A DNA stretch of 64,000 bases from a virus (taxonomy: Duplodnaviria > Caudoviricetes), in IMG/VR virus record IMGVR_UViG_3300028833_000058. The stretch is one strand, 5' to 3'. This document shows positions 19,950 through 32,279 of the stretch, one piece after another. The notes below the pieces were generated by a model. That model made no database searches and was not told where the DNA came from. It worked only from the letters and a program-made list of their open reading frames with translations. Positions within the stretch are counted from its first letter, which is position 1. Each line of letters opens with the position of its first letter. The position numbers and the translations under genes were made by a program.

Positions 19950-20103
19950 ATCTTTTTCCTTTATGGTTAATGGGTTCAGAATGGTTACTGAACATGTCTT
20001 TTACAATTCATCTAACAAGTTAGATGACAGAAATAAATTTACATCTATTTCTGTCATATTATAGAACTTATTTTATTTTATCCACAAAGAAAATTTATTA
20101 GTT

Positions 20104-20775
20104 TTAAAATTTCATCTTTCGACCTTTTTTCCAGCCTTGAGCTACAAATTGGTCTAAAAATTCTTTTTTTATACTTTTATTTTGTTTTAATTCGTCATTG
20201 TATACCCAACAATGACCATAGTTTGAATTTAAATTCCCTTTTTGACGAATTGAATTTTTTATAGCTATTTTCTTCTTTGTTTCTTCTGTTAAATGTTTTC
20301 CTTTCATTGGGTTTTCATGTGTTCTATAGTATTCTTTAAGTCCGTTTGATATTCTTTCTATGTATTCGGAATATTCTTTTTGTGTCATTGATGTCCAAAA
20401 TTTCTTATTTCCAATGATACATGGGTGATTTTTTCCATATTCAATCCAGTTGTTTTTCGCTTTTATAGATTGGATTTCATGATTGTTACAACAATAATCC
20501 CATCCACCTTCTCCACCAACTTTTATGTTATATGTATCAACTCTTTTTATAAATTCTTCATCGACAAGTTCTTTTTCTTTTTGATTCATTTCTTCTTCAC
20601 TCTTACATTCAAATAAAATTTCTTTTTTAAAATTGTTTAATCCATACTTTTTGAATGCTTCAAAAAGTATTTTTCCAGAACCCATGTATTCATCATTTAT
20701 CTTATCAGTTTTATGTTTTCCAATGTAAATTTTATTGTTTAAAACGTTTGTTATTTTATATATTAAAAAGTACAT
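20104..20775 (-). CDS. GIY-YIG homing endonuclease with NUMOD3 (SegB-like)
   Basis: IYKITN...KIYIGKH, YMGSG, YNIKVGG, NPMKGKHLTEETKKKI; start at ATG 20775 after AAGGAG; follows the tRNA array. Confidence 0.9.
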   Translation of the reverse strand: MYFLIYKITNVLNNKIYIGKHKTDKINDEYMGSGKILFEAFKKYGLNNFKKEILFECKSEEEMNQKEKELVDEEFIKRVDTYNIKVGGEGGWDYCCNNHEIQSIKAKNNWIEYGKNHPCIIGNKKFWTSMTQKEYSEYIERISNGLKEYYRTHENPMKGKHLTEETKKKIAIKNSIRQKGNLNSNYGHCWVYNDELKQNKSIKKEFLDQFVAQGWKKGRKMKF

Positions 20776-20823
20776 AACTGTCTCCTTATGTACTAGAACT
20801 TTTTTGTACACAAATTTTTGAAA

Positions 20824-20898
20824 TGGCACAGGATGGTTAGAATCGAACTACCATCTTTCGGGTTGGAGCCGAATATTTTACCATTAAACTAATCCTGC
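20824..20898 (-). tRNA. tRNA-Trp(CCA)
   Basis: TTCGG-CT CCA AC-CCGAA; CCA end. Confidence 0.85.
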
Positions 20899-20903
20899 AT
20901 CAA

Positions 20904-20981
20904 TGGGGTGGTCGGTGAGGATTTGAACCCACATTCACTAGAACCACAATCTAGGGCTTTAACCAATTAAGCTACGACCAC
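20904..20981 (-). tRNA. tRNA-His(GTG)
   Basis: CTAGA-TT GTG GT-TCTAG; C73, CCA end. Confidence 0.9.
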
Positions 20982-21026
20982 AAGAATATACCACATTACT
21001 GATATATGCTTCTAGTCGCAAAAAAA

Positions 21027-21100
21027 TGGCAGAGGTTGACTGACTCGAACAATCATCTTTGGTTTTGGAGACCAGTGTTCTACCTTTGAACTAAACCTCC
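21027..21100 (-). tRNA. tRNA-Trp(CCA)
   Basis: TGGT-CT CCA AA-ACCA; CCA end. Confidence 0.9.
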
Positions 21101-21102
21101 GT

Positions 21103-21177
21103 TGGAGCGACTCATGAGAATTGAACTCATATCTCTAGTTTGGAAGACTAGCATAATAGCCATTATACGAGAATCGC
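21103..21177 (-). tRNA. tRNA-Gly(TCC)
   Basis: CTAGT-CT TCC AA-ACTAG; U73, CCA end. Confidence 0.92.
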
Positions 21178-21179
21178 AT

Positions 21180-21253
21180 TGGAGAACCGCACAGGAGTCT
21201 AACCTGCCTAATTCGGGTTGCAGCCGAACACATAAACGCTCTGTCAACGGTCC
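21180..21253 (-). tRNA. tRNA-Cys(GCA)
   Basis: TTCGG-CT GCA AC-CCGAA; U73, CCA end. Confidence 0.85.
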
Positions 21254-21255
21254 AT

Positions 21256-21333
21256 TGGTGGCAATAACTTGAATCGAACAAGTAACTTCATCCTTATGAG
21301 AGATGCGTTCTAACCAAATTGAACTATATTGCC
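21256..21333 (-). tRNA. tRNA-Met(CAT), probably elongator
   Basis: CATCT-CT CAT AA-GGATG; paired G1-C72. Confidence 0.85.
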
Positions 21334-21336
21334 ATT

Positions 21337-21412
21337 TGGTGAAGATGGTGAGAATCGAACTCACACTCCCCTGATTAAAAGTCAGGTGCTTTACCGATTA
21401 AGCTACATCTTC
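21337..21412 (-). tRNA. tRNA-Lys(TTT)
   Basis: CCTGA-CT TTT AA-TCAGG; CCA end. Confidence 0.93.
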
Positions 21413-21414
21413 AA

Positions 21415-21490
21415 TGGTGGATACCCCAAGAATCGAACTCGGTCCTTCTGTTCTTCAGACAGACGTACGCACCAGCTATACCAGATATCC
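21415..21490 (-). tRNA. tRNA-Phe(GAA)
   Basis: TCTGT-CT GAA GA-ACAGA; CCA end. Confidence 0.9.
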
Positions 21491-21492
21491 AT

Positions 21493-21571
21493 TGGTGGAG
21501 AATGTGAGTTTTGAACTCACCTGAATTTCTCGGTGCAAACGAGATGACCACCCCAAGCAGTCCCATTCCCC
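21493..21571 (-). tRNA. tRNA-Ala(TGC)
   Basis: TCTCG-TT TGC AC-CGAGA; G3:U70; CCA end. Confidence 0.9.
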
Positions 21572-21594
21572 ACGAAATTTATAATATATACCTA

Positions 21595-21637
21595 AAAATA
21601 AGAAAAACCCCCGAAACTTTTTATTTTTTCGGAGGTT
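21595..21637 (-). terminator. attenuator terminator in front of tRNA array A
   Basis: AACCTCCGAAA-loop-TTTCGGGGGTT followed by TTTCTTATTTT. Confidence 0.85.
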
Positions 21638-21676
21638 GTACAATTTTTTACTTAGAGCCAAGAAATAAAGTTTTAG

Positions 21677-21754
21677 TTAATAGTCGACACCTCCGTCAGT
21701 TTTACCTGCGAATCCAAACATGTGCCAACATTTCTTAACTAATCTATTCATCAT
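21677..21754 (-). CDS. leader (attenuator) peptide A, MMNRLVKKCWHMFGFAGKTDGGVDY
   Basis: AGGAG RBS; 25 codons; KKCWHMFGFAGK matches the downstream tRNA set; CGGAGGT at 21695-21689 complementary to the terminator 5' arm. Confidence 0.85.
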   Translation of the reverse strand: MMNRLVKKCWHMFGFAGKTDGGVDY

Positions 21755-21787
21755 ATTAAATAGAACTCCTTTTTCTTTACTTCTTCT

Positions 21788-21816
21788 CTTATATCAAACT
21801 TTTTTCATAAAGTCAA
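21788..21816 (-). promoter_or_regulatory. sigma70-type promoter of leader A and tRNA array A
   Basis: TTGACT-17 bp-TATAAG with extended TG. Confidence 0.75.
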
Positions 21817-21836
21817 GTATTTTTTTTTAAGATTTT

Positions 21837-21964
21837 TGTCAAAGAGAATTTTTCAAACAGATTTTTGCAGCAGGACTTGAACCTGCATAGCTTTTCAGCT
21901 GTTGTTTTTTGAGAACAATGTGTATACCATTTCACGATGCAACTGTTTGACCGCTTCTTTGACA
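21837..21964 (-). ncRNA. Y-RNA-like RNA carrying a tRNA-Leu(CAA)-like body
   Basis: GTCAAAG/CTTTGAC stem, AG-C-GGT bulged-C helix, then D arm, TTGTT-CT CAA AA-AACAA, long variable arm, GCAGG-TTCAAGT-CCTGC. Confidence 0.8.
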
Positions 21965-22067
21965 TAATAACTAAATGAAAAACTTTACGTATTTTTCTTG
22001 AGTACTTCTCAACAACGGTTAGTCAACATTGGAGAGGGGGTATGAAGCCCTAGAAGTAATTAGTTTG

Positions 22068-22188
22068 TGGTAAAGAGTATAAATAGAACAGGTTTATTGC
22101 AGTAGGACTTGAACCTACAATCCTTTGATTAAAAATCAAATGTTTTATCCACTTAAACGATGCAACTGTTCCAACCGCTTCTTTACCA
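22068..22188 (-). ncRNA. Y-RNA-like RNA carrying a tRNA-Lys(TTT)-like body
   Basis: GGTAAAG/CTTTACC stem, same AAGCGGT helix, D arm, TTTGA-TT TTT AA-TCAAA, GTAGG-TTCAAGT-CCTAC. Confidence 0.8.
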
Positions 22189-22199
22189 AAATTTATGCT

Positions 22200-22273
22200 C
22201 GAAGAGAATATTTAGAAATTGTGTATTTAGTCAACAACCCTTAGACGATGTAACAATTTCAACCGCTTCTTCG
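22200..22273 (-). ncRNA. short Y-RNA-like RNA
   Basis: CGAAG-AAGCGGT-GAAATTG...CAATTTC-ATTCT-CTTCG; shares TRCATCG with the other copies. Confidence 0.7.
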
Positions 22274-22282
22274 CTCTAATAA

Positions 22283-22597
22283 TTATTCACACAAATCAGA
22301 GTTTGTACATGAGTTGTATGGCTTACGACTATATGAAACTTCTTCATAAGTTTTTGGCTCATAAACTGTAGTATAAGTAACATCTTTGTAAATTACTTCT
22401 ACTGGTTTAGAAATAGTGTAACTTGTTGAACAAGTGTTACATTCATTGTTGTAAGAACGATATGTGTTGTAAGAAGGTTTAGTGTAGTTTACAACAGGTT
22501 TTTGTTCTTCAACTTTTGGAGTAACAATTACTTCTTCTGTTTCAGCACAAGTACAAGCACTTAATAAAATAGAGCATAACATTAAAACTTTTTTCAT
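22283..22597 (-). CDS. putative lipoprotein
   Basis: Signal peptide MKKVLMLCSILLSAC with lipobox; Tyr/Thr/Cys-rich. Confidence 0.7.
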   Translation of the reverse strand: MKKVLMLCSILLSACTCAETEEVIVTPKVEEQKPVVNYTKPSYNTYRSYNNECNTCSTSYTISKPVEVIYKDVTYTTVYEPKTYEEVSYSRKPYNSCTNSDLCE

Positions 22598-22629
22598 GTC
22601 AATTACCTTTCGAACGTTGTTGATAAGTT

Positions 22630-22721
22630 AGTGAGGATTAGAGTATCATAAAGATTTGTTATTTCTAAAGCAGATTACATGTCTGGACTCGATGTAAATC
22701 TTTAACCGCTTAATCCTCACT
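22630..22721 (-). ncRNA. Y-RNA-like RNA directly after the Ro60 stop codon
   Basis: AGTGAGGATT-AAGCGGT-AAAGATTT...AAATCTTT-ATACTCT-AATCCTCACT. Confidence 0.75.
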
Positions 22722-22724
22722 TTC

Positions 22725-24353
22725 TTAGTCATTTACCGATGTCTTTATTTTAATAGAACTCTTCTTTTCTACTTTTTCATCTGTAATATTATCCATTCTA
22801 TCCCAAATGTCAATTAAAGTTTTAGCATAAATGGATTCTTTACCAGTCCAACCAGTTAGAATACTTGTTCTGTATTCATTTTCTGGCATTACATTGTTGT
22901 CATAGCCAGCTGTTTGAATAGAAAAGATATTAACTTTTGCATTAACCTTTCTTCTATATTCTTGAACAAGCTTTAAGACATCAATGAATTTTGAATTGTT
23001 GTATAAATAATCACGATAATGATGTTCATTTAATCCATACAATCCACCATGACCAGCTTGCATATCAGAGTAGATGAAAATGTTATCGTAATGTATCTTT
23101 TTCTTTATAGCTTCGTCAAAGAATAACCATATACCATTTTCAGTACTAGCACCGATGTTGTGTGAATGTCTACATTGAATTCTATCTAATTGAGACAGTA
23201 CACCATCTCTTTTGTTGACTGATTCGATTTCTAACCTATCTCCAAAGATTCCAACATACCCTTCATCAGAATTAATAGCTGTCATAACTGAAGATAAGTT
23301 ATCAATTTCAGCAACTTTAGTAGAACCATATTCAGTAGTTAATGCACCCCATGCTGAACCAGAGTTATCCGACAAGCAGATGGTCTTACCCTTTAACTTA
23401 GGGAAATTGTCCATTGCTCTATCTATACATCTGTTCAAGCTTTCTACAATAGCAGATTCACCCTTAACACGTGGATTAGAAGTTTGAATAGCCTTTAATG
23501 CAGACCAATATCTAAATGGAAATTGCTTACCCTTTTCGACACCGTTTTCAAGCATTTCAAGAACTTGCTTTCTGACATCTTCATCTTCAATCTCAGTAAA
23601 AATACCACGTAAGTTTCTTAAAAGAGCCATATGTGGGACATAAGTTGCTTGTAAAATTTCTGTCCAAGTTTTACCAGCACTTCTTAACTTTTCCCAAGTA
23701 GATTCTTCTTCTGTAACTTCAATAGTACCAGACTTCATAAGTTCATCAATGTCTTCAGAGTGAGCATGACAAATACGAACTAAGTCGATGATTTTAGCAC
23801 TTGTCTTGTACTTAGCCAATTGATATTTTTTAGTTACAGATAATTTGTTAGCCCATGCTCTTTTTAAGATAGATGGTAATTTACTTTTGGAGCCATTGAA
23901 GAACATCCACAATTCGAACTGATTCCAAATGTCAGTAGGAATGTTGATAACTTCTTCAATGCAACTACGCATGAACACCTTGTTTTCTTCATTAAAAGCT
24001 TTTCTACCATCATACATTACAGCTCTAACCATAATCAAAGCTGGGTTTAAACGCATATTGTATTCATATCTTAACTTTTTAGCAAGATTTAATACACCTT
24101 CGAAATCATAAGCTAAAGCATTGTCACAAGCTTCAACAAAAGTTGCTGTTGTACCAGATAACTCTTTGTTGTTAGCACCATCGTTTTTGTAATATGACTT
24201 TTCACCAAAAATAGATGACGCAGCAACCATTTCTAGCTCTAGCAATGGGTTAGTTTTATAGGAAATACCATTCATGAAGTTTACAACTTGCTCATCTTTG
24301 TGCTTGTTGTAATCTGCTTCAGATTTCTTTGCATAACCTGAGAATTTAGACAT
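22725..24353 (-). CDS. TROVE-domain RNA-binding protein (Ro60/Rsr homolog)
   Basis: SIFGExSYY, YQLAKY, TWExLRS, MALLRNLR, QFPFRY, vWA MIDAS DNSGS, YSDMQ. Confidence 0.93.
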   Translation of the reverse strand: MSKFSGYAKKSEADYNKHKDEQVVNFMNGISYKTNPLLELEMVAASSIFGEKSYYKNDGANNKELSGTTATFVEACDNALAYDFEGVLNLAKKLRYEYNMRLNPALIMVRAVMYDGRKAFNEENKVFMRSCIEEVINIPTDIWNQFELWMFFNGSKSKLPSILKRAWANKLSVTKKYQLAKYKTSAKIIDLVRICHAHSEDIDELMKSGTIEVTEEESTWEKLRSAGKTWTEILQATYVPHMALLRNLRGIFTEIEDEDVRKQVLEMLENGVEKGKQFPFRYWSALKAIQTSNPRVKGESAIVESLNRCIDRAMDNFPKLKGKTICLSDNSGSAWGALTTEYGSTKVAEIDNLSSVMTAINSDEGYVGIFGDRLEIESVNKRDGVLSQLDRIQCRHSHNIGASTENGIWLFFDEAIKKKIHYDNIFIYSDMQAGHGGLYGLNEHHYRDYLYNNSKFIDVLKLVQEYRRKVNAKVNIFSIQTAGYDNNVMPENEYRTSILTGWTGKESIYAKTLIDIWDRMDNITDEKVEKKSSIKIKTSVND

Positions 24354-24448
24354 TTTAGTTCCTTCCTTTCTTTCTCGATTTGTTGTGATTATATTTTCAA
24401 TTTTTGTTAAAGTAAAGTCAATTGTTGTAATTTATACACTTTAGCTGA

Positions 24449-24634
24449 TTAGTTAAGCACTAACTTGTTGAATTTAATGTTTAAATAATCAGCTATAGCT
24501 TTTTTCCAATTGAACTTCTTTACTTTCTTTTTCTTATTCGGCACTACTTTATGTTGAAATAGTGCATTGTGGTAAAGATTGAATAACAAACATCTCTCTT
24601 CACCTGTTTTAGTTCGTTTTGTTTTCTTTTTCAT
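24449..24634 (-). CDS. small basic protein, possibly ArfA-like
   Basis: GGAG RBS; LF-x-H-KV-x-x-KK pattern recalls ribosome-rescue factor ArfA. Confidence 0.35.
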   Translation of the reverse strand: MKKKTKRTKTGEERCLLFNLYHNALFQHKVVPNKKKKVKKFNWKKAIADYLNIKFNKLVLN

Positions 24635-24826
24635 TTTATTTCTCCAAATTATTTTTAATATATTTTTTAAAATACTGACGAACTTTTTTATTGTAATCTT
24701 TAATCATAGCTTGAACAGCATTTTTGTCTCCACTACGTTTATAATCACTTTTATATTCTTCGTCAGGTTTTACATTTATGTTTTTATATCCTTTCATTTT
24801 ATTTCTCCGATAAAAAAGGGAGATTG

Positions 24827-25210
24827 TTATCTCCCGTTGTTTTTGTTACACGCTACGAAACTGCTGTACATTTCCTTGTTAATATTTATGTCCATAGTTT
24901 CAGCTCGTTCCCTCGCTTTTCTTTCATAATATTCAAATCTATCTTTTGTTAATGGATAAAAATACAAGGCTCTCGATTCCATTATTACTAACTTCTTCAA
25001 TTCCTTCTCTGATTTTTCAGCATATTCTTTACATAACATTCTAAAAAGACCGTCTTCTGTTTCTTCATCTTTTATAACGTGTCCATAATGTTTAGATAAC
25101 TTATAAGCTTGTAAATCAATGTTAGCTTGTGTTTCTATCGCTCTTTGTATGTCACCAGACAATTTGCTAAAATTAGACCCCTTTTCATCAGAAAAATGTC
25201 TATAGTCCAT
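24827..25210 (-). CDS. hypothetical protein
   Basis: ORF with upstream AGTTCTA motif. Confidence 0.6.
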   Translation of the reverse strand: MDYRHFSDEKGSNFSKLSGDIQRAIETQANIDLQAYKLSKHYGHVIKDEETEDGLFRMLCKEYAEKSEKELKKLVIMESRALYFYPLTKDRFEYYERKARERAETMDININKEMYSSFVACNKNNGR

Positions 25211-25414
25211 TGTAATAATTCCCTATATATATGTGAAGTGTAATGTATAGAACTAAAAAATCGTTTGTCCATTTTAGAATAATGACCTAGGAAATTCTAA
25301 AACTCTATGTTAATTCATACGACAGGTTTTAACATTACTAAGATGTCATGGAACTACTGGGACAATTGTACAAAAAAGTGTTTGACATTTTGTCCAATCT
25401 AGTGTATAAACTTT

Positions 25415-25723
25415 ATGTGTCAAACAACTGAACTGGACAAAGCAATGGATGTTTTACTTCGTATACTCATAATCTTTATGTTGTTATATATGGTCTATAT
25501 AACCATATCATCTATTTGGGAAGCTGGTGGTCGTACCATACTCGGAAGTATAATGTTTGTGGCCATGATGTGGGCCTTTTGTGCACTTTTAAATACAACT
25601 ATCGTACAAGCTCTTATAGCTTGTTGTTTTCTAGTTGTAATTGTCATGTTGGTACTTCAAGCTATAGCTTGTTTTCTTTCATCAATGATTAGTTATATCA
25701 ATAAGTTATTTAATCATGAATGA
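25415..25723 (+). CDS. small membrane protein
   Basis: Three hydrophobic helices; TTGACA...TATAAA promoter immediately upstream, so possibly leaderless. Confidence 0.6.
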   Translation: MCQTTELDKAMDVLLRILIIFMLLYMVYITISSIWEAGGRTILGSIMFVAMMWAFCALLNTTIVQALIACCFLVVIVMLVLQAIACFLSSMISYINKLFNHE

Positions 25724-26084
25724 AAGAATCAATAAAATCTTCTAAACTAATTTTTTCACCAGTCTCTTTGTTTGTTGCAATCTGTTTGTCAAGACGTATC
25801 ACAAACGAATCGTTAGAAAGAACATATGCACTAAGTTGTCTAAATCCTCTATCTTTAAAGAATTGTAAGATATCTAAGTAGATTTTTGTGTCTTTTGATG
25901 GTTTAATTTTGTCCATATCGACTTTACCATTTCTCCAATCGTTATACATATATTTCGGTAACCATCCAACATATTTTATGCACCGTGTACAACGAATCCC
26001 AAATATTTCAGGATGCGTCTTAGAAATAATATGTTCAAAGTGCGTAGACCCACATATAGGACATATGAATTTATCATTCTTCAT
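25710..26084 (-). CDS. zinc-ribbon protein
   Basis: CPICG...CTRC; start after GAGGA (the track extension overlaps tRNA-Gln). Confidence 0.6.
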   Translation of the reverse strand: MKNDKFICPICGSTHFEHIISKTHPEIFGIRCTRCIKYVGWLPKYMYNDWRNGKVDMDKIKPSKDTKIYLDILQFFKDRGFRQLSAYVLSNDSFVIRLDKQIATNKETGEKISLEDFIDSFIHD

Positions 26085-26105
26085 GAAACTTCCTCTCAGA
26101 TTTAG

Positions 26106-26179
26106 TGGTTTCGGGGGGTCGATTCGGACGACCATTAACGCAGTCAAAGTGCGCTATCCTACCATTAGACGACCCCGAA
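26106..26179 (-). tRNA. tRNA-Gln(TTG)
   Basis: GCGCA-CT TTG AC-TGCGT; CCA end. Confidence 0.88.
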
Positions 26180-26185
26180 ATAAGA

Positions 26186-26314
26186 CGATTGGAGGAGGAG
26201 TCGAACCTCACACAATTAAGAATTACCGTTCTTAAAATTTTCCTCTACTTCCCGTCTTCTTAATCAAACTTTCTTTCGGTAAAAATACTTATTTGACATA
26301 GTAGAGCTCCAACC
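26186..26314 (-). ncRNA. tRNA-like ncRNA with acceptor stem and T arm, copy 1
   Basis: GGTTGGAG/CTCCAATC stem, GAGG-TTCGACT-CCTC. Confidence 0.6.
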
Positions 26315-26349
26315 ATAAAAAAACAATAACTTTTTAATTGAATAGTTCA

Positions 26350-26643
26350 TCACTACCTTGTTCAGTTTGTGGTCTGGAACATATCTTCATCTTCAACATT
26401 ACTTGGCTAGATGGAATCCACTTGTTCTCTACACATTTATTACGAAAGTGCCAGAATCGAACTGGGAACTAAGATTACAACACCCATAGAAGTTATCTCA
26501 GTTTCTATCTATGCTCAATAGGGTCCAACACTATCTCACCTTCATAAATTTAGCTCGGTATTGTCATCAGCATTATCTGTTAAGATTTCACTGAATTCGG
26601 ATTCATTCAAATATACATTTCTGTATAAGTGTTCAGTTTTACC
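26350..26643 (-). mobile_element. group I intron following a tRNA-Gln(TTG) 5' half
   Basis: P AATTCAGTGAAA (26597-26586), Q AATACCGAGC, R GTGTAGAGAAC, S AAGATATGTTCC; boundaries approximate. Confidence 0.7.
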
Positions 26644-26678
26644 CAAAATCTCATGTCCTACCATTAGACGACCCCGAA
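26644..26678 (-). pseudogene. tRNA-Gln(TTG) 5' half; no matching 3' exon found
   Basis: TTCGGGGTCGTCTAATGGTAGGACATGAGATTTTG. Confidence 0.6.
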
Positions 26679-26685
26679 ATAATCA

Positions 26686-26822
26686 CGGTTGGAGGTGGAG
26701 TCGAACCACACACCACTAACATCTGCAGATATTAGAATTTCCCTCTACTTGCCGTTATCTTAATCAAACTTTCACTTCTGCAGAAGTACTCATTTGACAT
26801 ATGAAACATTAGAGCTCCAACC
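26686..26822 (-). ncRNA. tRNA-like ncRNA with acceptor stem and T arm, copy 2
   Basis: GGTTGGAG/CTCCAACC, GTGG-TTCGACT-CCAC (compensatory change versus copy 1). Confidence 0.6.
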
Positions 26823-26967
26823 ATAAAAAACAATAACTTTTTGATTGAATAGTTCATCACTACCAAACCTAAACGGAGAAGTTATTGCAGAAACTCCCTA
26901 AACGTAGGATAGGATTGATAACATTACTAAGATGCCATAGCAATAGTCCTATCACTTCAAACTAAAA

Positions 26968-27060
26968 TGGCACCCCGTAAACTGATTCGAACAGCATTCC
27001 CGTACTAATTGACTGGAGCTATAGACATTCAACTAGCGGTCACCATGACTACAACGAGGT
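26968..27060 (-). ncRNA. aberrant tRNA-like RNA
   Basis: ACCTCGT/ACGGGGT-G-CCA, CTG-TTCGAAT-CAG, no canonical anticodon loop. Confidence 0.5.
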
Positions 27061-27069
27061 ATTAAATGT

Positions 27070-27188
27070 TCTTCTTGACAAGGCTTGAACTTGTACCTAA
27101 ACCTTAGAGGGAATTGTGCTACCGCCGTTAGGGTTTAGTAAAAAGAGCTATAGTATTTACTAAATCTATCCGTTTACACTACAAGAAG
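27070..27188 (-). ncRNA. aberrant tRNA-like RNA with a large D-loop insertion
   Basis: CTTCTTG/CAAGAAG, ACAAG-TTCAAGC-CTTGT, TTTAGTAAA/TTTACTAAA hairpin in the D loop. Confidence 0.5.
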
Positions 27189-27474
27189 ATAATACTATAA
27201 ATTATTAATAAACCAATTGTGAATGTTCTGCCAAAATCCAGACTTTATAGATATCAATGTACCATATATTGCTATCAACGAAACAATTATTGAAAGTATA
27301 GATTCTACAATTTCTAATTTTTCTTTCATTTAACATATTCTCCAATTTTGTATCTTTCTAGGCTACTACTGCGCAACCCTACGACTGCTGCACCATCGTT
27401 TTACGTTCTTCGTTTACTCAGCTTGTATCGTCAATGAAAGTTCCTGAGCTGACGTTTTCCAACCTATTACAACT

Positions 27475-27554
27475 TGGCGGGGCCACATGATTTTCACACG
27501 TTATCTTGGACCTACATCCTAAGCAATCTGTTCTAGAACCAGATTTAACGCCCC
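27475..27554 (-). ncRNA. aberrant tRNA-like RNA
   Basis: GGGGC/GCCCC-G-CCA with three internal hairpins and non-canonical loops. Confidence 0.45.
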
Positions 27555-27782
27555 ATAAAAAAATCGGCAATCGGTTTTTACCCTTTATCCACTCGCTGTT
27601 CGAACTCTTTAGCGTTGGAGGGTCAGGTTACTGTTTTCTACAGCACATAGTTATTTAGGCAATTACCTCTAAATACTAACAACACGCCATCAACCTGTCT
27701 GATTATATAAGCATCAATTTAATACTTATCCGATGTACATTCATATTAAATTGTACTAGTCTATATAATCACGAATTAGAAT

Positions 27783-27868
27783 TGGTGCAAGGTGATAGAG
27801 TCGCACTACCCGAGTCCGAAGACAAGTGATTTACAGTCACTCCCGCTACTCCTACGGTATAACCTTGC
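27783..27868 (-). tRNA. tRNA-Tyr(GTA)
   Basis: AGTGA-CT GTA AA-TCACT; long variable arm; CCA end. Confidence 0.88.
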
Positions 27869-28025
27869 ATAAAAGTAATCCGATAATATCTAAATCTACA
27901 CTTACTTGGTACTAGCATGTAAAACATACTGTCCAAAGCCCCCACTTTCAATTTCTAAAGAAATAGCCGCTCGGATTAACACGGTGGGATGGATTCTACG
28001 AAAAAAGTACGTAAAATCAATGGTT

Positions 28026-28099
28026 TGGTCGAGAACGTCCGATTCGAACGGCAATCCCTCGCCCCAAACGAGGAGTGTTACCCTTACACCACGTTCTCG
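28026..28099 (-). tRNA. tRNA-Pro(TGG)
   Basis: CCTCG-TT TGG GG-CGAGG; C1-G72, CCA end. Confidence 0.85.
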
Positions 28100-28109
28100 A
28101 TGAATAAAA

Positions 28110-28186
28110 TGGTGGAACAGGAGTGACTTGAACACCCAACCTATCCGTTATGAGCGGAGAGCTCTGACCAATTGAGCTACTGTTCC
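28110..28186 (-). tRNA. tRNA(CAT), probably Ile2 (lysidine)
   Basis: TCCG-CT CAT AA-CGGA; overall resemblance to bacterial tRNA-Ile2; identity inferred. Confidence 0.8.
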
Positions 28187-28187
28187 A

Positions 28188-28706
28188 TTAAGCTTTTTTA
28201 TAAGATTTATTCTTCAATATAAAGATTATTCTGCTATGTGCAACACCAAATTTTCTAGCTAATCCACGAGTTCCGAATTCTTTATGTTTTGGAATATAAT
28301 GTTCTCTTATCCATTTAGCTTGTTCATTTGTAAGTTTTGCACCATGGTTATCTTCACCACCATGATATGTTATTAAATTATGCTTTACTGCGTGAATAGT
28401 ATTTTCTTGATTAGTACACCACTCTAAGTTATCCCAACGATTGTTTAATTTGTTTCCATCAATGTGATTTACTTGTGGTTTGTTTTCTGGATTTGGTACA
28501 AAAGCTTCAGCAACCAACCTGTGAATTTTTACACATTTACATCCACCTTTTCTACCATTTGGATATAAAGCGTATACATAATAGCCTGTCTTTCCAATTT
28601 GTTGCTTTACGTTTTTGTTAGACCTACCCTTTAGATTGCCTAGATTACTTATAAAATAACCTTGTATATCAATTTCTTTCCAAATTTCTTCTTCGATGTT
28701 TTCCAT
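28188..28706 (-). CDS. HNH homing endonuclease (NUMOD4-HNH)
   Basis: EIWKEI...YFISNLG, IHRLVAEAF, VNHIDGNKLNN...NLEW. Confidence 0.92.
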   Translation of the reverse strand: MENIEEEIWKEIDIQGYFISNLGNLKGRSNKNVKQQIGKTGYYVYALYPNGRKGGCKCVKIHRLVAEAFVPNPENKPQVNHIDGNKLNNRWDNLEWCTNQENTIHAVKHNLITYHGGEDNHGAKLTNEQAKWIREHYIPKHKEFGTRGLARKFGVAHSRIIFILKNKSYKKA

Positions 28707-28794
28707 TTACAAATTCCTATATTGTTATGACTAATTTATAGAACTATATAAATGGTGCCTATTTTTCATCGAACACAAAATTTTTATAAAAATT

Positions 28795-28866
28795 TGATTC
28801 CAACGAGATTCGAACTCGTATTACCACCGTGAAAGGGTGATGACCTAACCGTTAGTCGATGGAATC
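28795..28866 (-). tRNA. tRNA-Glu(TTC)
   Basis: TCACC-CT TTC AC-GGTGG; CCA not encoded. Confidence 0.88.
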
Positions 28867-28945
28867 ATAATAATCAACGCTTTTTGATTGCATGGTAAAA
28901 ACCACCAAACCTTATTATGGAGAAGCATTGATGAAACTCCTTGAT

Positions 28946-29022
28946 TGGCGGGAGTGACCAGTCTTGAACTGGCGACCTCCACAGTGACAGTGTGGCGTTC
29001 TGACCAACTGAACTACACCCCC
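28946..29022 (-). tRNA. tRNA-Asp(GTC)
   Basis: CCACA-CT GTC AC-TGTGG; G73, CCA end. Confidence 0.93.
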
Positions 29023-29024
29023 AT

Positions 29025-29112
29025 TGGTGGATTTGATGAGACTTGAACTCATATGGTCACAATGACCGAGGGATTTTAAGTCCCTTGCGTATACCAGTTT
29101 CGCCACAAATCC
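29025..29112 (-). tRNA. tRNA-Leu(TAA)
   Basis: AGGGA-CT TAA AA-TCCCT; long variable arm. Confidence 0.93.
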
Positions 29113-29116
29113 AAAT

Positions 29117-29191
29117 TGGCTGGGATGGAGAATTTCGAAATCTCGACCTACGGTTTAACAGACCGCCGCTCTGCCTCTGAGCTACACCCCA
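29117..29191 (-). tRNA. tRNA-Asn(GTT)
   Basis: GCGGT-CT GTT AA-ACCGT. Confidence 0.92.
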
Positions 29192-29197
29192 ATATAA

Positions 29198-29272
29198 TGG
29201 TGCCACATGAGAATTTTGCAATCCCGACCTACCGCTTACAAGGCGGTTGCTCTACTTCTGAGCTAATGTGGC
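29198..29272 (-). tRNA. tRNA-Thr(TGT)
   Basis: ACCGC-CT TGT AA-GCGGT. Confidence 0.9.
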
Positions 29273-29276
29273 ATTT

Positions 29277-29410
29277 TGGCGGGAGTGACTATATCTGTGT
29301 CATTATAAAGTCATTTAATTAACATTTTGTATCACTGAGTGTCCTACACTTTTATATATCTAGAATCAGATAGGCAAAACTCTAACTACTTTGTATTTAA
29401 CAGAACTCCC
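29277..29410 (-). ncRNA. 134-nt RNA with a tRNA-Asp-like acceptor stem and CCA but a non-tRNA interior
   Basis: GGGAGT...ACTCCC-G-CCA; 3' end matches tRNA-Asp (GTCACTCCCGCCA). Confidence 0.45.
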
Positions 29411-29417
29411 ATAATAA

Positions 29418-29494
29418 TGGCAGACCGTACAGGACTCAAACCTGTGACACCAAGCTTAGAAGGCTTGTGCTCTATTCTACTGAGCTAACGGTCT
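29418..29494 (-). tRNA. tRNA-Arg(TCT)
   Basis: CAAGC-CT TCT AA-GCTTG. Confidence 0.92.
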
Positions 29495-29820
29495 ATAAGA
29501 GTTATATAGGATAGGTAAACCAACGTATTTACCTCTTGCGTTATGGAGCAATGATTTGTTCCAATGTAATCTGGGCTCATCTATTCTTACGAGATAGACC
29601 ATCCTATATGTTCTATGGTTTGGGATGTGGAAGCGAATCCATCTTCCTTTTTGTACCCTAGGCCTGACCGATATACACTTTACAATGTATAACATCCCAA
29701 GACTTGTAGTTTTCATAACGGTCCATTTAGAGATTCTACTGAGCACTGTCCGTTATGGGAATCTGCTTTGTTAAGGAGCTCTAAATCTCTTAACCGCAGT
29801 TACTACAACCCTCTCAGCAG

Positions 29821-30225
29821 CTAATCTTTAATCTTCACGAGTTCATAAACATTAATTGGATATTTCCTTTGTTCACAATTTGCAATTTTATAAACTCTAT
29901 GTTTATCTATACCCAAAATATATTTTACGATTCTACCGATATCTTTACCAGCTTCAGCTTCTGGGTTATCAATTTTTCTTTTTACATGGTACTGATACAC
30001 ATAATCTAATGGTGTATAAGACCAATCTCTAAATTTACCTCCAACAATATCAGAAGTGGTAAATTGCTTTTTATAAGCCAAAGCTCCTTGAATCATACCA
30101 TTTATAAAAGTTGTCAATTCAGCTTGTTGCATGTAAGATAGTGATTCAAAAGCACTGGACTTTTGTATGTTAGAATTGATAATCATAGCTCTTTTCCTTT
30201 CATGTATGATTATAATGTTAAACAA
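29821..30225 (-). CDS. hypothetical protein inserted in the tRNA array
   Basis: ORF; probable start at MIINSN after GAAAGGA. Confidence 0.65.
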   Translation of the reverse strand: MFNIIIIHERKRAMIINSNIQKSSAFESLSYMQQAELTTFINGMIQGALAYKKQFTTSDIVGGKFRDWSYTPLDYVYQYHVKRKIDNPEAEAGKDIGRIVKYILGIDKHRVYKIANCEQRKYPINVYELVKIKD

Positions 30226-30280
30226 GTTTATTAAATGAGAAACAAGTTATTTAACGACCCCTGTTTCGGTTTAAGTCGAT

Positions 30281-30373
30281 TGGCGGAGAGAGTAGGATTC
30301 GAACCCACGGTGGTATATTTCACCCACGGCTGATTTCAAGTCAGCTGCAATAGACCAACTCTGCCATCTCTCC
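30281..30373 (-). tRNA. tRNA-Ser(TGA)
   Basis: GCTGA-CT TGA AA-TCAGC; long variable arm; G73. Confidence 0.93.
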
Positions 30374-30381
30374 ATGATATT

Positions 30382-30462
30382 TACAGATGGAGAGATTTGA
30401 ACTCTCACGCATTTCTGCACTGGTTCCTAAGACCAGAGTGTCTACCGTTCCACCACATCTGT
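30382..30462 (-). tRNA. tRNA-Leu(TAG)
   Basis: CTGGT-CT TAG GA-ACCAG; CCA not encoded. Confidence 0.9.
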
Positions 30463-30469
30463 ATAAATT

Positions 30470-30546
30470 TGGTACAGCTGGATAGACTCGGACTATCGAC
30501 CCCTGCCTTATCAGAGCAGTGCTCTAACCAACTGAGCTACAGCTGT
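30470..30546 (-). tRNA. tRNA-Ile(GAT)
   Basis: CTGCT-CT GAT AA-GGCAG. Confidence 0.92.
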
Positions 30547-30551
30547 ACAAA

Positions 30552-30628
30552 TGGTAGAGGTGAAGAGATTTGAACTCCTGACCCTCTCGGTGTAAACGAG
30601 ACGCTCTAACCAGCTGAGCTACACCTCT
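30552..30628 (-). tRNA. tRNA-Val(TAC)
   Basis: TCTCG-TT TAC AC-CGAGA. Confidence 0.93.
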
Positions 30629-30664
30629 ACAAAAAGTATTTCCTATTCACAATGTCATTATAAC

Positions 30665-30700
30665 TAAAATAAAAACTCGTCTTTTTATCTTTGACGAGTT
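30665..30700 (-). terminator. attenuator terminator in front of tRNA array B
   Basis: AACTCGTC-loop-GACGAGTT followed by TTTATTTT. Confidence 0.85.
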
Positions 30701-30750
30701 CCTATTTCTTTTAACTTTTTAAATGTTTTGATTAAGCAATAGCAAACTCG

Positions 30751-30813
30751 TCAGCCTTGTTCTCTAGGTTGATTATATAAATCTGAGTATGTTACTATCG
30801 TTTTAATCATCAT
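30751..30813 (-). CDS. leader (attenuator) peptide B, MMIKTIVTYSDLYNQPREQG
   Basis: GAGG RBS; 20 codons; TIVTYSDLYNQPREQ matches the downstream tRNA set; TGACGAGTT (30753-30745) over the stop codon complements the terminator 5' arm. Confidence 0.85.
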   Translation of the reverse strand: MMIKTIVTYSDLYNQPREQG

Positions 30814-30842
30814 ATTAATTAGAACCTCTTCATTGAAATTTT

Positions 30843-31127
30843 TTATATTGTACAGAATTTTTTCTTATTTGTAAAGTCTTTTTTTTCAATTTTCTTTACT
30901 TTTTTGTTAATATAGTTGATAACATCTTGAACTGTAATGAATTTTTTTGATACCTTGTCTGGTATTTCAATATCAAATTCACACTCTAAAGCCATTATAA
31001 TTTCGATTATATCCAAACTATCGGCTCCGAAATCGTCAACCAAGCTTTTAGATTTCTTGATTGCGGATTCTTTTATGTCCAAGTGTTCAGAAATGATACC
31101 TATTACTAATTTTTCAACACTCTTCAT
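30843..31127 (-). CDS. acpP: acyl carrier protein
   Basis: DDFGADSLDIIEIIMALECEFDIEIPD phosphopantetheine motif. Confidence 0.9.
   Translation of the reverse strand: MKSVEKLVIGIISEHLDIKESAIKKSKSLVDDFGADSLDIIEIIMALECEFDIEIPDKVSKKFITVQDVINYINKKVKKIEKKDFTNKKKFCTI
30847..30875 (-). promoter_or_regulatory. sigma70-type promoter of leader B and tRNA array B
   Basis: TTTACA-17 bp-TACAAT inside the ACP gene 3' end. Confidence 0.7.
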
Positions 31128-31613
31128 TCTCTCACCTTGTGAAAATTACCGATTCTTTAAGCACGTTGGGTATGCCGTCTGAATAACTGACTACTCCTTA
31201 CGTTATCATTCTCAGTTGTACGATAACAGCCCAATAGTCATATAGTTGACGTTTTGCACATAGTGGCATCTCGGTATTCCATTTGTCTTTACAGACATTC
31301 GTATATAAATTCGGCTGAAGGACTCCTGACTACCTCCAAGCAGTATATTAAGCGCATTATTCAGTCACATCCACATAAGTTAGCTACTCTTATGCTTTTA
31401 GGATGAGGAGATTGATTACTCCTAAACGGATACAGATATCAGCATTTCAACCTACGATTTGTCCGTTTCTTACGTCACTAAAGGTTGGCCAACCCTTGCT
31501 ATTTCAACCTTATGCTTCTTAATACCTGGCAACTATATAGTAAACTTTTCAGTATTATTATATATCTCTTTATTAGCCATCAACTAATTATTTAGAGAAA
31601 GCCAAATTTATAT

Positions 31614-31691
31614 TGGTTGCAGGGAATGGATTCGAACCACTGACCTCTAGGTTATGAGCCTAGCAAGCTGACCTGACTGCTCTACCCTGCT
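31614..31691 (-). tRNA. initiator tRNA-fMet(CAT)
   Basis: A1xA72 mismatch, A11:U24, CTAGG-CT CAT AA-CCTAG. Confidence 0.88.
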
Positions 31692-31990
31692 ATAAAACAA
31701 ACTTATGGGTTATTGATGTTCTATATTTGAACTATAAATAGGTGATAAAGCTATTTATTTAGGCACCTCCCCTAAAATTTTCAATATAATTGGCAGAGCG
31801 TTTAATGCGTTTTCAGGAGTTCTGCCAACAAATTTATATGTCATTTCTTTTAGGTCTACACCATTTTACCCCCTAGGCTGCTTAAGACGAATGACAAGAC
31901 TAGCAGTGTTATATCTATCCGTTTTAACAAAATAAGAATTTGGTGCCCTCTAGATATAACAGTATAGTTTGGGCGGACTATGGTTCTAAT

Positions 31991-32065
31991 TGGAGCAGAT
32001 AATGAGAATTGAACTCATATCTAAACCTTGGCAAGGTCTCATACTAACCATTGTACTATATCTGC
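31991..32065 (-). tRNA. tRNA-Gly(GCC)
   Basis: AGACC-TT GCC AA-GGTTT; U73. Confidence 0.9.
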
Positions 32066-32069
32066 GTTA

Positions 32070-32162
32070 TGGCGGATACTAAAGGATTCGAACCTTTGCG
32101 AGATGTTACCACCCCCTAACGGTTTAGCAAACCGTCCTCTTCACCAGCTTGAGTAAGTATCC
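32070..32162 (-). tRNA. tRNA-Ser(GCT)
   Basis: ACGGT-TT GCT AA-ACCGT; long variable arm. Confidence 0.92.
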
Positions 32163-32170
32163 ATAAAATG

Positions 32171-32245
32171 TTCCACCGTCAAGACTTGCACTTGAACTTG
32201 TAATCCCCCGATGGATTACTATGCTACTGTTACATCACTGGTGAA
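32171..32245 (-). ncRNA. aberrant tRNA-like RNA with enlarged anticodon arm
   Basis: TTCACC/GGTGGA, D arm, GTAATCC-ATCGGG-GGATTAC, TCAAG-TGCAAGT-CTTGA. Confidence 0.5.
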
Positions 32246-32279
32246 ACGAAAAGGAGGAAATAAACCTCCTCCAAAAAGA

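Follow-up and report, generated by a model that had tools for sequence, protein, structure and literature searches.

Candidate ribosome-mediated attenuators ahead of two phage tRNA arrays, each with leader codons matching its own array

Introduction

What large tRNA sets do for phages is debated, with codon compensation, replacement of degraded host tRNAs and escape from tRNA-cleaving defences as the alternatives. To our knowledge, the regulation of phage tRNA genes is largely unknown, and literature searches found neither published leader-peptide control of tRNA genes nor an account of how phage tRNA arrays are regulated. The question is raised by a 64,000-nt stretch from a large, uncultured phage of the Caudoviricetes (IMG/VR record IMGVR_UViG_3300028833_000058), called hereafter the window, in which two tRNA arrays, A and B, each lie behind a short open reading frame. 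A first-pass annotation had proposed that these ORFs, leaders A and B, are matched to their own arrays and form a two-channel sensor of decoding capacity. The proposal was followed up here by computational means throughout, namely sequence comparison, statistics and fold prediction.

Results

Anatomy of the two modules

Leader A and the array behind it are composed of the following elements, in the direction of transcription.

21788..21816, minus strand: promoter-like site, by sequence reading (TTGACT, 17 nt, TATAAG)
21748..21770, minus strand: 5' signature (AGGAG, GTTCTA, then ATGATGA)
21677-21754, minus strand: leader A ORF, 25 codons, encoding MMNRLVKKCWHMFGFAGKTDGGVDY
21684..21695, minus strand: putative antiterminator 5' strand, CGGAGGU inside codons 20-22, predicted to pair with the terminator 5' arm ACCUCCG
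21598..21637, minus strand: intrinsic terminator (11-pair stem, A-rich 10-nt loop, T tract)
20824..21571, minus strand: tRNA array A (Ala, Phe, Lys, Met, Cys, Gly(tcc), Trp, His, Trp)

Leader B and its array are arranged in the same order.

30847..30875, minus strand: sigma-70-like promoter (TTTACA, 17 nt, TACAAT)
30807..30829, minus strand: 5' signature (Shine-Dalgarno-like AGAGG, GTTCTA, then ATGATGA)
30751-30813, minus strand: leader B ORF, 20 codons, encoding MMIKTIVTYSDLYNQPREQG
30734..30753, minus strand: putative antiterminator 5' strand, starting at the UGA stop codon, predicted to pair with the terminator 5' arm
30662..30704, minus strand: intrinsic terminator (stem of about 8-12 pairs, A-rich 11-nt loop, T tract)
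30628 down to 26106, minus strand: tRNA array B (Val, Ile(gat), Leu(tag), Ser(tga), Arg(tct), Thr(tgt), Asn, Leu(taa), Asp, Glu, a 'cat' tRNA, Pro, Tyr(gta), Gln)

Both modules contain a promoter-like site, a Shine-Dalgarno-like site (AGGAG in A, AGAGG in B, each 11 nt ahead of the ATG), a short ORF and a T-tract terminator, with the first tRNA 30–40 nt further on. The promoter-like site of leader B overlaps the 3' end of an acyl-carrier-protein-like gene; it has the joint best score of the region (10/12) and belongs to a class that is not enriched in the AT-rich DNA found here. That of leader A was missing from a simple promoter scan because its second hexamer ends in G, and relatives carry TTTACA, 17 nt, TATATA at the same position. 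Both terminators were also absent from a simple scan, because their loops, which at 10–11 nt are of unusual length, exceed its 8-nt limit. Terminator loops are long overall (10–15 nt) and A-rich.

Array B is not continuous: a 134-aa ORF, a gene for an HNH endonuclease and 1.9 kb of conserved non-coding DNA lie between its tRNA genes. Its Thr tRNA (29201-29272) was detected by Rfam only, the anticodon tgt being assigned by eye, and its divergent Tyr tRNA (27783-27868) was matched by ARAGORN only at lowered stringency, and shows 94.5% identity to a relative. Relatives carry Ile(tat) at the syntenic position of the 'cat' tRNA, which is therefore probably an AUA-reading Ile tRNA (Ile2). The motif AGTTCTATA also occurs inside the array (28737-28745). 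Since array B spans 4.5 kb and includes inserted genes as well as this motif, its distal tRNAs may be transcribed from additional promoters.

Three further tRNA genes are located 5' of leader B.

32070-32162, minus strand: Ser(gct)
31991-32065, minus strand: Gly(gcc)
31614-31691, minus strand: Met(cat), initiator-like by its 1-72 mismatch

This group sits behind an ordinary gene-end terminator. The ORF ahead of it, which forms the 3' end of a 104-aa gene, shows no match to the three tRNAs (rank 15 of 19). The annotation that Ser(GCT), Gly(GCC) and fMet lie upstream of leader B and outside attenuation was borne out.

Leader codons match the downstream array better than expected by chance

All eight amino acids of array A are covered by leader A, and its codons 7-18 (KKCWHMFGFAGK) make an in-set run of 12 codons that contains exactly these eight. 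Leader B covers the 13 amino-acid types of array B (13/13), and no CTN codon is found in it for Leu(tag). As the first-pass annotation stated, the core sets of 8 (A) and 12 (B) amino acids do not overlap and their union is 20. Exceptions to the partition are the Met-Met starts of both leaders, the two off-set residues of leader B (Lys at codon 4 and Gly at codon 20) and B-type residues in the flanks of leader A (NRLV; T, D, V, D, Y).

The match is better than that of random short ORFs. With six-frame stop-free windows of the same length as a null, the in-set run of 12 in leader A has p = 2e-4 and the 13/13 coverage by leader B p = 9e-5. Under strict wobble rules, array A can read 54% of the codons in leader A and array B 33%; in leader B, array B can read 79% and array A 11%. 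A permutation test of leader codons against array anticodons was then performed on 19 leader/array pairs, picked by rule and left unfiltered, from this phage and its IMG/VR relatives. It gave z = 7.5, and none of 200,000 permutations scored as high. For nine of the ten leader families, comprising this and distant phages, the leader's own array ranked first; the leader peptides are unlike between families, each mirroring its downstream array.

In the distant relatives, the correspondence extends to synonymous codons. TTA accompanies Leu(taa), and CTN accompanies Leu(tag); for Arg, AGA is found together with Arg(tct), and CGC together with Arg(acg). Ser(cga), Ser(tga) and Ser(gct) are matched by TCG, TCA and AGC, respectively, and Gln(ctg) by CAG. 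Because codon choice is resolved at the level of isoacceptors, it points to leaders that sample tRNA species rather than amino acids.

A predicted terminator/antiterminator switch depends on ribosome position

The leaders were folded with a co-transcriptional model, in which the transcript is considered before the terminator 3' arm exists and the footprint of the ribosome is assumed to reach from -15 to +12 nt relative to the A-site codon. The antiterminator was predicted to form with the ribosome at codons 6-16 (A) or 1-17 (B), and to be lost when the ribosome is further downstream. Cognate codons are concentrated in this predicted sensing window: over the 10 families they make up 173 of 222 codons inside it versus 26 of 69 outside (p = 1e-9). 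Equilibrium folding was uninformative as a test of the switch, full-length leaders invariably adopting the terminator; since the terminator always wins at equilibrium, the switch model rests on kinetics and on the assumed footprint.

Covariation among relatives is seen for both alternative helices. For leader B, 91% of cells of the antiterminator remain paired in eight relatives, with three compensatory pairs, versus 30–52% in slid controls, and 92% of cells of the terminator remain paired among relatives, with four compensatory pairs (controls slid by 1–3 columns gave 23–52% across the two B-type helices). Pairing of the stop-codon region is also specific, at -254 kcal/mol with its own terminator arm versus -144 +/- 13 with those of others.

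In leader A, the antiterminator strand has an alternative partner at codons 9-11 (21722-21729), with which it is predicted to form a 1:2 hairpin that narrows the predicted sensing window in the window phage only. The same hairpin folds as free RNA in relative G002, where the antiterminator is still predicted with the ribosome at codons 1-16. Conservation of this hairpin was considered and dropped, as G001 and G003 are without that fold.

Inspection of leader A in four relatives revealed that 4 of the 12 core codon columns are variable, every change being synonymous, and that 6 of the 10 flank columns are variable, every one altering the amino acid. The core shows a purifying pattern, consistent with translation of the ORF.

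In sum, each module carries a translatable ORF with a ribosome-binding site, codons that match the cargo, a terminator and an antiterminator predicted to depend on ribosome position. The cargo of known attenuators, genes for biosynthesis or aminoacyl-tRNA synthetases, is not found downstream; its place is taken by tRNA arrays, and the modules are therefore assigned to no named leader family.

Leader codons tend to follow changes in the arrays of relatives

The first-pass annotation had asked whether gain, loss or movement of a tRNA is matched by a change in leader codons. In four relatives it largely is. G002 has lost the Val, Ile(gat), Leu(tag), Arg and Leu(taa) tRNAs, and its leader is without any Val, Arg or CTN codon; a single TTA is present but falls outside the sensing window predicted for it, and ATT is retained. 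In G003, from which Val, Ile(gat) and Leu(tag) have been lost, the leader is without ATT/ATC, and has Val and CTN codons only outside the window of sensing. Array B of G001 and G004 starts with an AGY-reading Ser tRNA, and an AGY codon is present within the sensing window of their leader B. An AGY codon is also present in the leader of L218, the array of which is incompletely seen.

For the seven B-type leaders, cells within the sensing window were counted for presence of the tRNA and of its codon. With the tRNA present, 47 cells had the codon and 19 had not, and with the tRNA absent, one had the codon and seven had not (p = 0.002), the absent-tRNA cells being contributed by two phages only. 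Over whole ORFs, this fine-scale covariation was not significant (p = 0.076); whole-ORF presence/absence Fisher tests are weak because the flanks dilute the signal. The correspondence is imperfect: Arg or Val tRNAs are without a leader codon in several relatives, and Leu(tag) is unsampled throughout this family. For Gly, anticodon and codon seemed to covary, the window combining tcc with GGA and G001 combining gcc with GGC, but this was rejected since G003 has GGC together with tcc.

A near-identity search of deposited phages gave matches limited to homing-endonuclease and single-tRNA sequences, and no close cultured relative. Pattern matches in L001, L002 and most of 119 metagenome stretches had no tRNA context and were discarded as chance.

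Similarity between the two leaders

Both leaders were annotated as sharing their 5' start. Both of the 23-mers quoted there were found, and they agree at 20 of 23 positions; both leaders begin with Met-Met. A 19-nt pattern, GTTCTANTTAATATGATGA, searched with at most two mismatches, was found at these two sites only, with 0.02 expected. Similarity between A and B is high from promoter to start (z = 7.1) and from antiterminator to terminator (z = 4.2), and undetectable in the ORF bodies (z = -0.2). An origin of both leaders by duplication of one attenuator, as annotated, is plausible for the regulatory scaffold, the parts of which are alike. The ORF bodies are unlike, and the likeness of the scaffold may also have arisen by convergence on shared functional motifs.

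The annotation had also taken GTTCTA for a recurring putative phage promoter motif. Enrichment was seen for the exact 9-mer AGTTCTATA only, which has five copies on the coding strand versus about 0.9 from a base-composition estimate. The hexamer GTTCTA itself showed no enrichment in the window, nor did AGTTCTATA when one mismatch was allowed. That AGTTCTA(TA) recurs 5' of genes is the one observation behind the idea of a possible leaderless transcript.

Discussion

The anatomy, the codon/anticodon match, the alternative helices with their covariation and the purifying pattern of the core lead us to regard modules A and B as, very probably, ribosome-mediated (leader-peptide) transcription attenuators that control tRNA genes. 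The proposal of two leaders matched to their own arrays as a two-channel decoding sensor is supported by codon match, fold window, covariation and relatives alike.

The direction of regulation, as we infer it, would be as follows. Transcription would start at the promoter some 35–60 nt upstream, and the short ORF would be translated as RNA polymerase proceeds. Were the sampled codons decoded fast, the ribosome would reach the end of the ORF and cover the antiterminator strand, which in A overlaps the final codons and in B starts at the stop codon; the terminator hairpin would then form, leaving the tRNA array off. Were any sampled codon slow, its charged tRNA being scarce, the ribosome would stall upstream, the antiterminator would pair with the terminator 5' arm, and the polymerase would read through into the array. 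The outcome would be a negative feedback on tRNA supply, with two channels that jointly sample all 20 amino acids. Untranslated, leader B would be 'on' by default; for leader A of this phage, an extra upstream hairpin is predicted to make 'off' the default state.

The signal, also inferred, could be a loss of host tRNAs, brought about by defence nucleases or by shut-off of the host, or else codon demand from the phage itself. A more elaborate reading is possible, and we advance it tentatively: each module would be an isoacceptor-resolved sensor of decoding failure that turns on its matching half of a complete tRNA set, the likely trigger being host tRNA loss by anticodon nucleases or shut-off, and there would be two promoter inputs. 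An early sigma-70-type transcript would carry the Shine-Dalgarno sequence, and a late, leaderless or nearly leaderless one would start from AGTTCTA by the ATG-ATG. If both inputs were real, the rules of attenuation would shift in the course of infection.

Could the arrays be expressed without such control? The terminators might be the ordinary ends of upstream units, with the arrays on their own downstream promoters and the short ORFs non-regulatory. Five relatives (G001, G002, G003, L152 and L218) do have a TTTACA-17-TATAtt site between the leader B terminator and the first tRNA, and in these leader B directly follows the upstream gene with no sigma-70-like site ahead; in the window, AT-rich -10-like hexamers lie past both terminators. 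Own promoters, however, leave unexplained why the codons match the specific array, why the matched codons fall within a window defined by structure, why the antiterminator is conserved with compensatory changes and why variation in the leader A core is synonymous only. We regard this explanation as very unlikely. A downstream promoter is moreover compatible with attenuated read-through, as both can coexist, and the site in the five relatives could be a bypass of attenuation. Still more improbable, to the point of being nearly negligible, is that the short ORFs are functional micropeptides or match by chance in AT-rich DNA. Short ORFs are common (179 of at least 20 aa in 13 kb) and whole-ORF presence/absence tests are weak, but chance is rejected by the permutation and six-frame nulls, the peptides mirror the downstream arrays although wholly different between families, and the flanks of leader A vary freely.

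Another explanation accepts the attenuators as real and has them report amino-acid starvation via uncharged tRNA, the link to tRNA genes being a by-product. As known from trp and his attenuation, low tRNA and low charging both slow decoding and are therefore indistinguishable to the mechanism, and the broad amino-acid sampling by the leaders would suit such a role. Such a circuit would, however, be futile, since extra tRNA gives no relief of an amino-acid shortage. Synonymous choice also tracks the isoacceptors of the leader's own array (Leu TTA/CTN, Arg AGA/CGC, Ser TCN/AGY), and AGY is found in the leader B sensing window of both relatives whose array B opens with an AGY-reading Ser tRNA. 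We consider starvation sensing very improbable, and control of tRNA supply by the arrays' own attenuators to be the better account.

Multivalent attenuators are known in enterobacteria from ilvGMEDA (Ile/Leu/Val) and thr (Thr/Ile), besides trpL, hisL, leuL and pheL, and the his attenuator responds to how much tRNA-His is present and how it is modified (hisR and hisT mutants). They resemble the phage modules in having a short translated leader with regulatory codons, a terminator competing with an antiterminator, an outcome decided by ribosome position and more than one amino acid sampled. They regulate biosynthetic enzymes, whereas the phage modules would regulate tRNAs. Their leaders contain runs of one to three amino acids, in contrast to 8 and 12 in the phage leaders, mostly with one or two codons each, and only in the phage-encoded modules do synonymous codons follow array isoacceptors. 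The pheST attenuator of E. coli (pheM leader), which controls phenylalanyl-tRNA synthetase, comes closer in that a leader peptide governs a translation-supply gene instead of a biosynthetic operon; unlike the phage tRNA-array modules, it is a host system with one amino acid and a protein gene. The T-box of Firmicutes binds uncharged tRNA directly, via a specifier codon and the T-box sequence, and similarly senses a specific tRNA state through a terminator/antiterminator switch ahead of translation-supply genes. It does so without translation, whereas the phage leaders would use an ORF read by the ribosome. An Rfam search of 19000-34000 gave no T-box or other cis-regulatory leader at gathering score, and the weak matches (E <= 1) lay outside the leaders, none being a T-box.

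In the literature (for example PMC12409363), phage tRNAs are reported to be able to rescue infection after host tRNA cleavage. Arrays that compensate for host tRNA loss carry the same cargo as this phage, a large and near-complete tRNA set; here, in addition, a candidate sensor is built into the array. Such an array-matched attenuator would make phage tRNA supply self-adjusting and would extend leader-peptide attenuation from metabolism to the decoding machinery. The leaders of related phages would be a ready variant set of natural sensors for the availability of individual tRNAs, and the leader/array codon match would be a simple annotation rule for regulated tRNA arrays.

As to the surroundings, genes neighbouring the arrays encode an RNA ligase, a phosphoesterase and a Ro60/TROVE protein with tRNA-like RNAs, which would fit an island devoted to 'keep translation running'.

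Leader ORFs and tRNA arrays

The phage-like window has a G+C content of 32%. ARAGORN and Rfam identify 27 genes of tRNA or tRNA-like type from 20.8 to 32.2 kb; the window further encodes an anaerobic ribonucleotide reductase, an RNA ligase, homing endonucleases and a TROVE/Ro60-like protein. Leader and array features are all on the minus strand, and the two leader ORFs are as follows.

21677-21754, minus strand: leader A ORF, encoding MMNRLVKKCWHMFGFAGKTDGGVDY
30751-30813, minus strand: leader B ORF, encoding MMIKTIVTYSDLYNQPREQG

Ahead of each ORF lie a promoter-like site and then a Shine-Dalgarno-like site. A G+C-containing hairpin with a T tract lies about 40-45 nt past the ORF, and 30-40 nt beyond that begins the first tRNA of an uninterrupted array on the same strand. 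Array A contains Ala, Phe, Lys, Met, Cys, Gly, Trp, His and Trp tRNAs, and codons 7-18 of leader A specify exactly its eight amino acids. Array B contains Val, Ile, Leu (two), Ser, Arg, Thr, Asn, Asp, Glu, Pro, Tyr and Gln tRNAs, plus one with a 'cat' anticodon. The latter is probably an AUA-reading Ile tRNA, because relatives hold Ile(tat) at the same position; an ATA codon is present in leader B. The Thr tRNA was detected by Rfam alone. The Tyr tRNA is divergent and detected by ARAGORN only at lowered stringency. Its acceptor stem is perfect, its anticodon loop reads CUGUAAA and its CCA is encoded; it is 94.5% identical to a relative that otherwise barely aligns.

The first-pass annotation had proposed that the leader cores are disjoint and together make the 20 amino acids. 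This holds, with exceptions: the Met-Met starts of both leaders, Lys4 and Gly20 of leader B, and B-type residues flanking the leader A core. Leu(tag) of array B is without any CTN codon in leader B. The common 5' signature described there was also recovered, the 23-nt start regions of A and B agreeing at 20 positions and occurring nowhere else in the window, as was the position of the Ser(gct), Gly(gcc) and initiator-like Met tRNAs upstream of leader B, where they lie behind an ordinary gene-end terminator.

Against a null of all equal-length stop-free six-frame windows, the in-set run of 12 in leader A had p = 2e-4 and the full coverage by leader B p = 9e-5.

A predicted ribosome-controlled switch

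Equilibrium folding of the full-length leaders always gave the terminator, so that the decision to attenuate would have to be kinetic. Folding was therefore modelled on the transcript before the terminator 3' arm is made, the ribosome being represented by a block from -15 to +12 nt around the A-site codon. In this model, CGGAGGU of leader A (codons 20-22) pairs with the terminator-arm ACCUCCG only when the ribosome occupies codons 6-16. With the ribosome at codons 1-5, a hairpin that joins codons 9-11 to codons 22-24 is in competition, and from codon 17 on the antiterminator is covered. The upstream hairpin of leader A restricts the predicted sensing window (the codons at which a stalled ribosome would let the antiterminator form) in the window phage only; free RNA of the relative G002 also folds it, with the predicted window unaffected. 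The leader B antiterminator, which starts at the UGA stop codon, forms by default and with the ribosome at codons 1-17, and is gone from codon 18.

For both leaders, the predicted sensing windows and the array-matched codons coincide. In ten families taken together, cognate codons made up 173 of 222 within the sensing window, versus 26 of 69 outside (p = 1e-9). The stop-codon region of each leader has complementarity to its own terminator arm far above that to the arms of others. In an alignment of eight B-type leaders, terminator-arm columns were paired in 91% of cells with the upstream partner (3 compensatory pairs) and in 92% with the downstream partner (4 compensatory pairs), versus 23-52% for slid controls.

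The terminator loops (window 21617-21626 and 30682-30692, and aligned relatives) are long, at 8-15 nt, and an A-rich sequence (AAAAATAAAAA) is common to those of A- and B-types and of relatives. Such long A-rich loops are unusual for intrinsic terminators; they may slow hairpin closure or be a candidate binding site.

Leaders match their arrays in other phages

Candidate leaders were picked without regard to their codons in 44 IMG/VR loci, fetched with the TROVE gene between arrays as anchor: the rule required an intrinsic terminator no more than 450 nt ahead of a tRNA and took the longest ATG ORF that ends near this terminator. The leader-terminator-array design recurs in quite different phages with different arrays. 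At locus L037, MKTIFNISPSILRPSIRRS lies ahead of a Ser-Arg-Pro-Ile-Met-Leu array, a leader with EDDLLED ahead of a Glu-Asp-Met-Leu array, and the third array has a leader of 35 codons in which each of its 15 amino acids is represented. Additional leader families were found in L048, L032 and L060. Under strict wobble rules, the own array ranked first in nine of ten leader families, and none of 200,000 permutations reached the observed score; for 19 unfiltered non-redundant candidates, obvious non-leaders included, the codon match had z = 7.5. The proposed correspondence of leader codons to array anticodons is thus better than random. Synonymous codon choice also tracks the isoacceptors present in the own array: TTA, CTA, CTY and TTG alongside four Leu tRNAs in L048; AGA versus CGC; in L032, TCG, TCA and AGC; and CAG where the array has Gln(ctg).

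Evolution of the leaders in relatives

Among four A-type leaders, 4 of 12 codon columns in the core vary, synonymously every time, and 6 of 10 in the flanks, with an amino-acid change every time, a pattern that we read as evidence for constraint at the level of translation. The content of leader A and array A is constant among A-type relatives. In G003 the Ala tRNA has been relocated to the end of array A and leader A is unaltered, as expected.

Leader B varies among relatives. G002 has lost from array B its tRNAs for Val, Ile(gat), Leu(tag), Arg and Leu(taa), and has no others elsewhere on its 157-kb contig; its leader B lacks Val, Arg and CTN codons, and the sole TTA lies outside the sensing window. 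In G003, Val, Ile(gat) and Leu(tag) are gone from array B; ATA is the only Ile codon of its leader B, and the Val and CTN codons lie outside the sensing window. In G001 and G004, array B begins with an AGY-reading Ser tRNA (anticodon ACT) and the leader has AGC or AGT, whereas in the window phage and G003 this tRNA is outside array B and leader B has no AGY codon.

The suggestion that gain, loss or movement of a tRNA is matched by a leader codon change fits these cases and the counts within the structure-defined windows, where the codon was present in 47 cells and absent in 19 when the tRNA was present, and present in 1 and absent in 7 when it was absent (p = 0.002), the informative losses stemming from two phages only. 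Over whole ORFs the association was not significant (p = 0.076). The G002 leader B retains an ATT. Several relatives have an Arg or Val tRNA without the matching leader B codon. At fine scale the codon/tRNA match is real but loose.

Three relatives have a tRNA-Ser gene with anticodon ACT (L014:8810-8901, L015:15262-15353, L103:35-126), whose A34 is unusual in bacteria-type tRNAs except Arg(ACG); the window phage and G003 have a GCT counterpart.

A possible duplicated scaffold and promoter-like elements

One ancestral attenuator had been proposed to have duplicated. The A and B segments are much more alike than shuffled controls from promoter to start (z = 7.1), and likewise more alike from antiterminator to terminator (z = 4.2); the ORF bodies show no such likeness (z = -0.2). 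The pattern is consistent with a duplicated scaffold and a rewritten coding core, and common functional motifs could account for part of the signal.

GTTCTA had been named as a recurring motif. The hexamer is not enriched in the window, but the exact 9-mer AGTTCTATA has five copies on the coding strand, every one intergenic and ahead of genes, versus about 0.9 expected by our estimate from base composition. In all B-type relatives it lies 4-7 nt ahead of the leader B ATG, with no sigma-70-like site upstream of it, so that a putative second, nearly leaderless transcript is possible. Relatives have a TTTACA-17-TATAtt promoter-like site past the leader B terminator and none ahead of the leader; in the window phage a site of this kind lies ahead of leader B. 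The promoter seems to have switched sides of the attenuator. The sigma-70-like site past the terminator in these relatives is the chief reservation about strict control by attenuation.

Post-terminator TTTACA-17-TATAtt sites: L014:8550-8600; L015:12590-12640; L016 about 14310-14350 (reverse strand); L152; L218
GTTATAAT-N3-ATTGT(G/A)AATAGGAAA elements: window 30639-30664, recurring at 32923-32946 (both minus strand); L014, L015, L016, L152, L218
GTTCTTTGA(CA) motifs: L037:10398-10431, 14897-14924 and 16064-16092; homologues in L033, L038, L040, L053

The second of these, a conserved element of about 26 nt, stands immediately upstream of the first array B tRNA in all relatives, and may act as -10-type promoter, processing signal or protein-binding site. 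The third is conserved in a distant family after each attenuator terminator, immediately ahead of the first tRNA. It is similar to the window phage's GTTCTA motif, but is placed on the opposite side of the attenuator.

Relation to known systems

In its operation the design resembles the pheST leader and the multivalent leader-peptide attenuators found in enterobacterial amino-acid operons, and it shares its logic with T-box riboswitches. In contrast to the amino-acid operons and pheST, leaders A and B would regulate tRNAs. No Rfam leader family matches them, and a full-text literature search gave no account of such control over tRNA genes. On purely computational grounds, they would represent attenuation of a known type applied to tRNA genes.

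Neighbouring genes and RNAs

20104-20829, minus strand: GIY-YIG/SegE-like homing-endonuclease gene, after array A
21862-21944, minus strand: Leu(caa) tRNA-like element (ARAGORN)
22094-22167, minus strand: Lys(ttt) tRNA-like element (ARAGORN)
22725-24353, minus strand: TROVE/Ro60-like gene (Pfam TROVE, E = 3e-11)
26180-28025, minus strand: apparently non-coding, relatively G+C-rich 1.9-kb stretch, inside array B between Pro and Gln
28188-28706, minus strand: HNH/NUMOD4 homing-endonuclease gene, inside array B

In the two tRNA-like elements, which follow the TROVE/Ro60-like gene, the first acceptor pair is mismatched, CCA is lacking and the acceptor stems are nearly identical; a 32-nt motif is present in three copies (21929-21960, 22152-22183, 22240-22271). 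The elements look like Y-RNA-type Ro partners that have a tRNA-like domain, and not like decoding tRNAs; they gave no match to Y-RNA families.

The 1.9-kb stretch has no Rfam family at E <= 1. It contains a 500-bp direct repeat (26185-26273 and 26685-26773, 81%; 26318-26357 and 26825-26864, 98%), tRNA 3'-half-like pieces and a tRNA-like gene (27068-27189) whose anticodon loop carries a 45-nt insertion. Its segments 27471-27560 and 26962-27062 share 94-98% identity with relatives that are otherwise barely alignable.

An RNA ligase gene (PHROG 'RNA ligase and tail fiber attachment catalyst') adjoins a metallophosphoesterase gene (11897-14120, minus strand); likened to T4 Rnl1 with Pnkp, they are a possible tRNA-repair pair. 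The large subunit of the anaerobic ribonucleotide reductase (5214-7388, plus strand) suggests an anaerobic host. The HNH/NUMOD4 gene has short stretches of 77-89% DNA identity to endonuclease genes from phages of Bacillus, Staphylococcus and Enterococcus.
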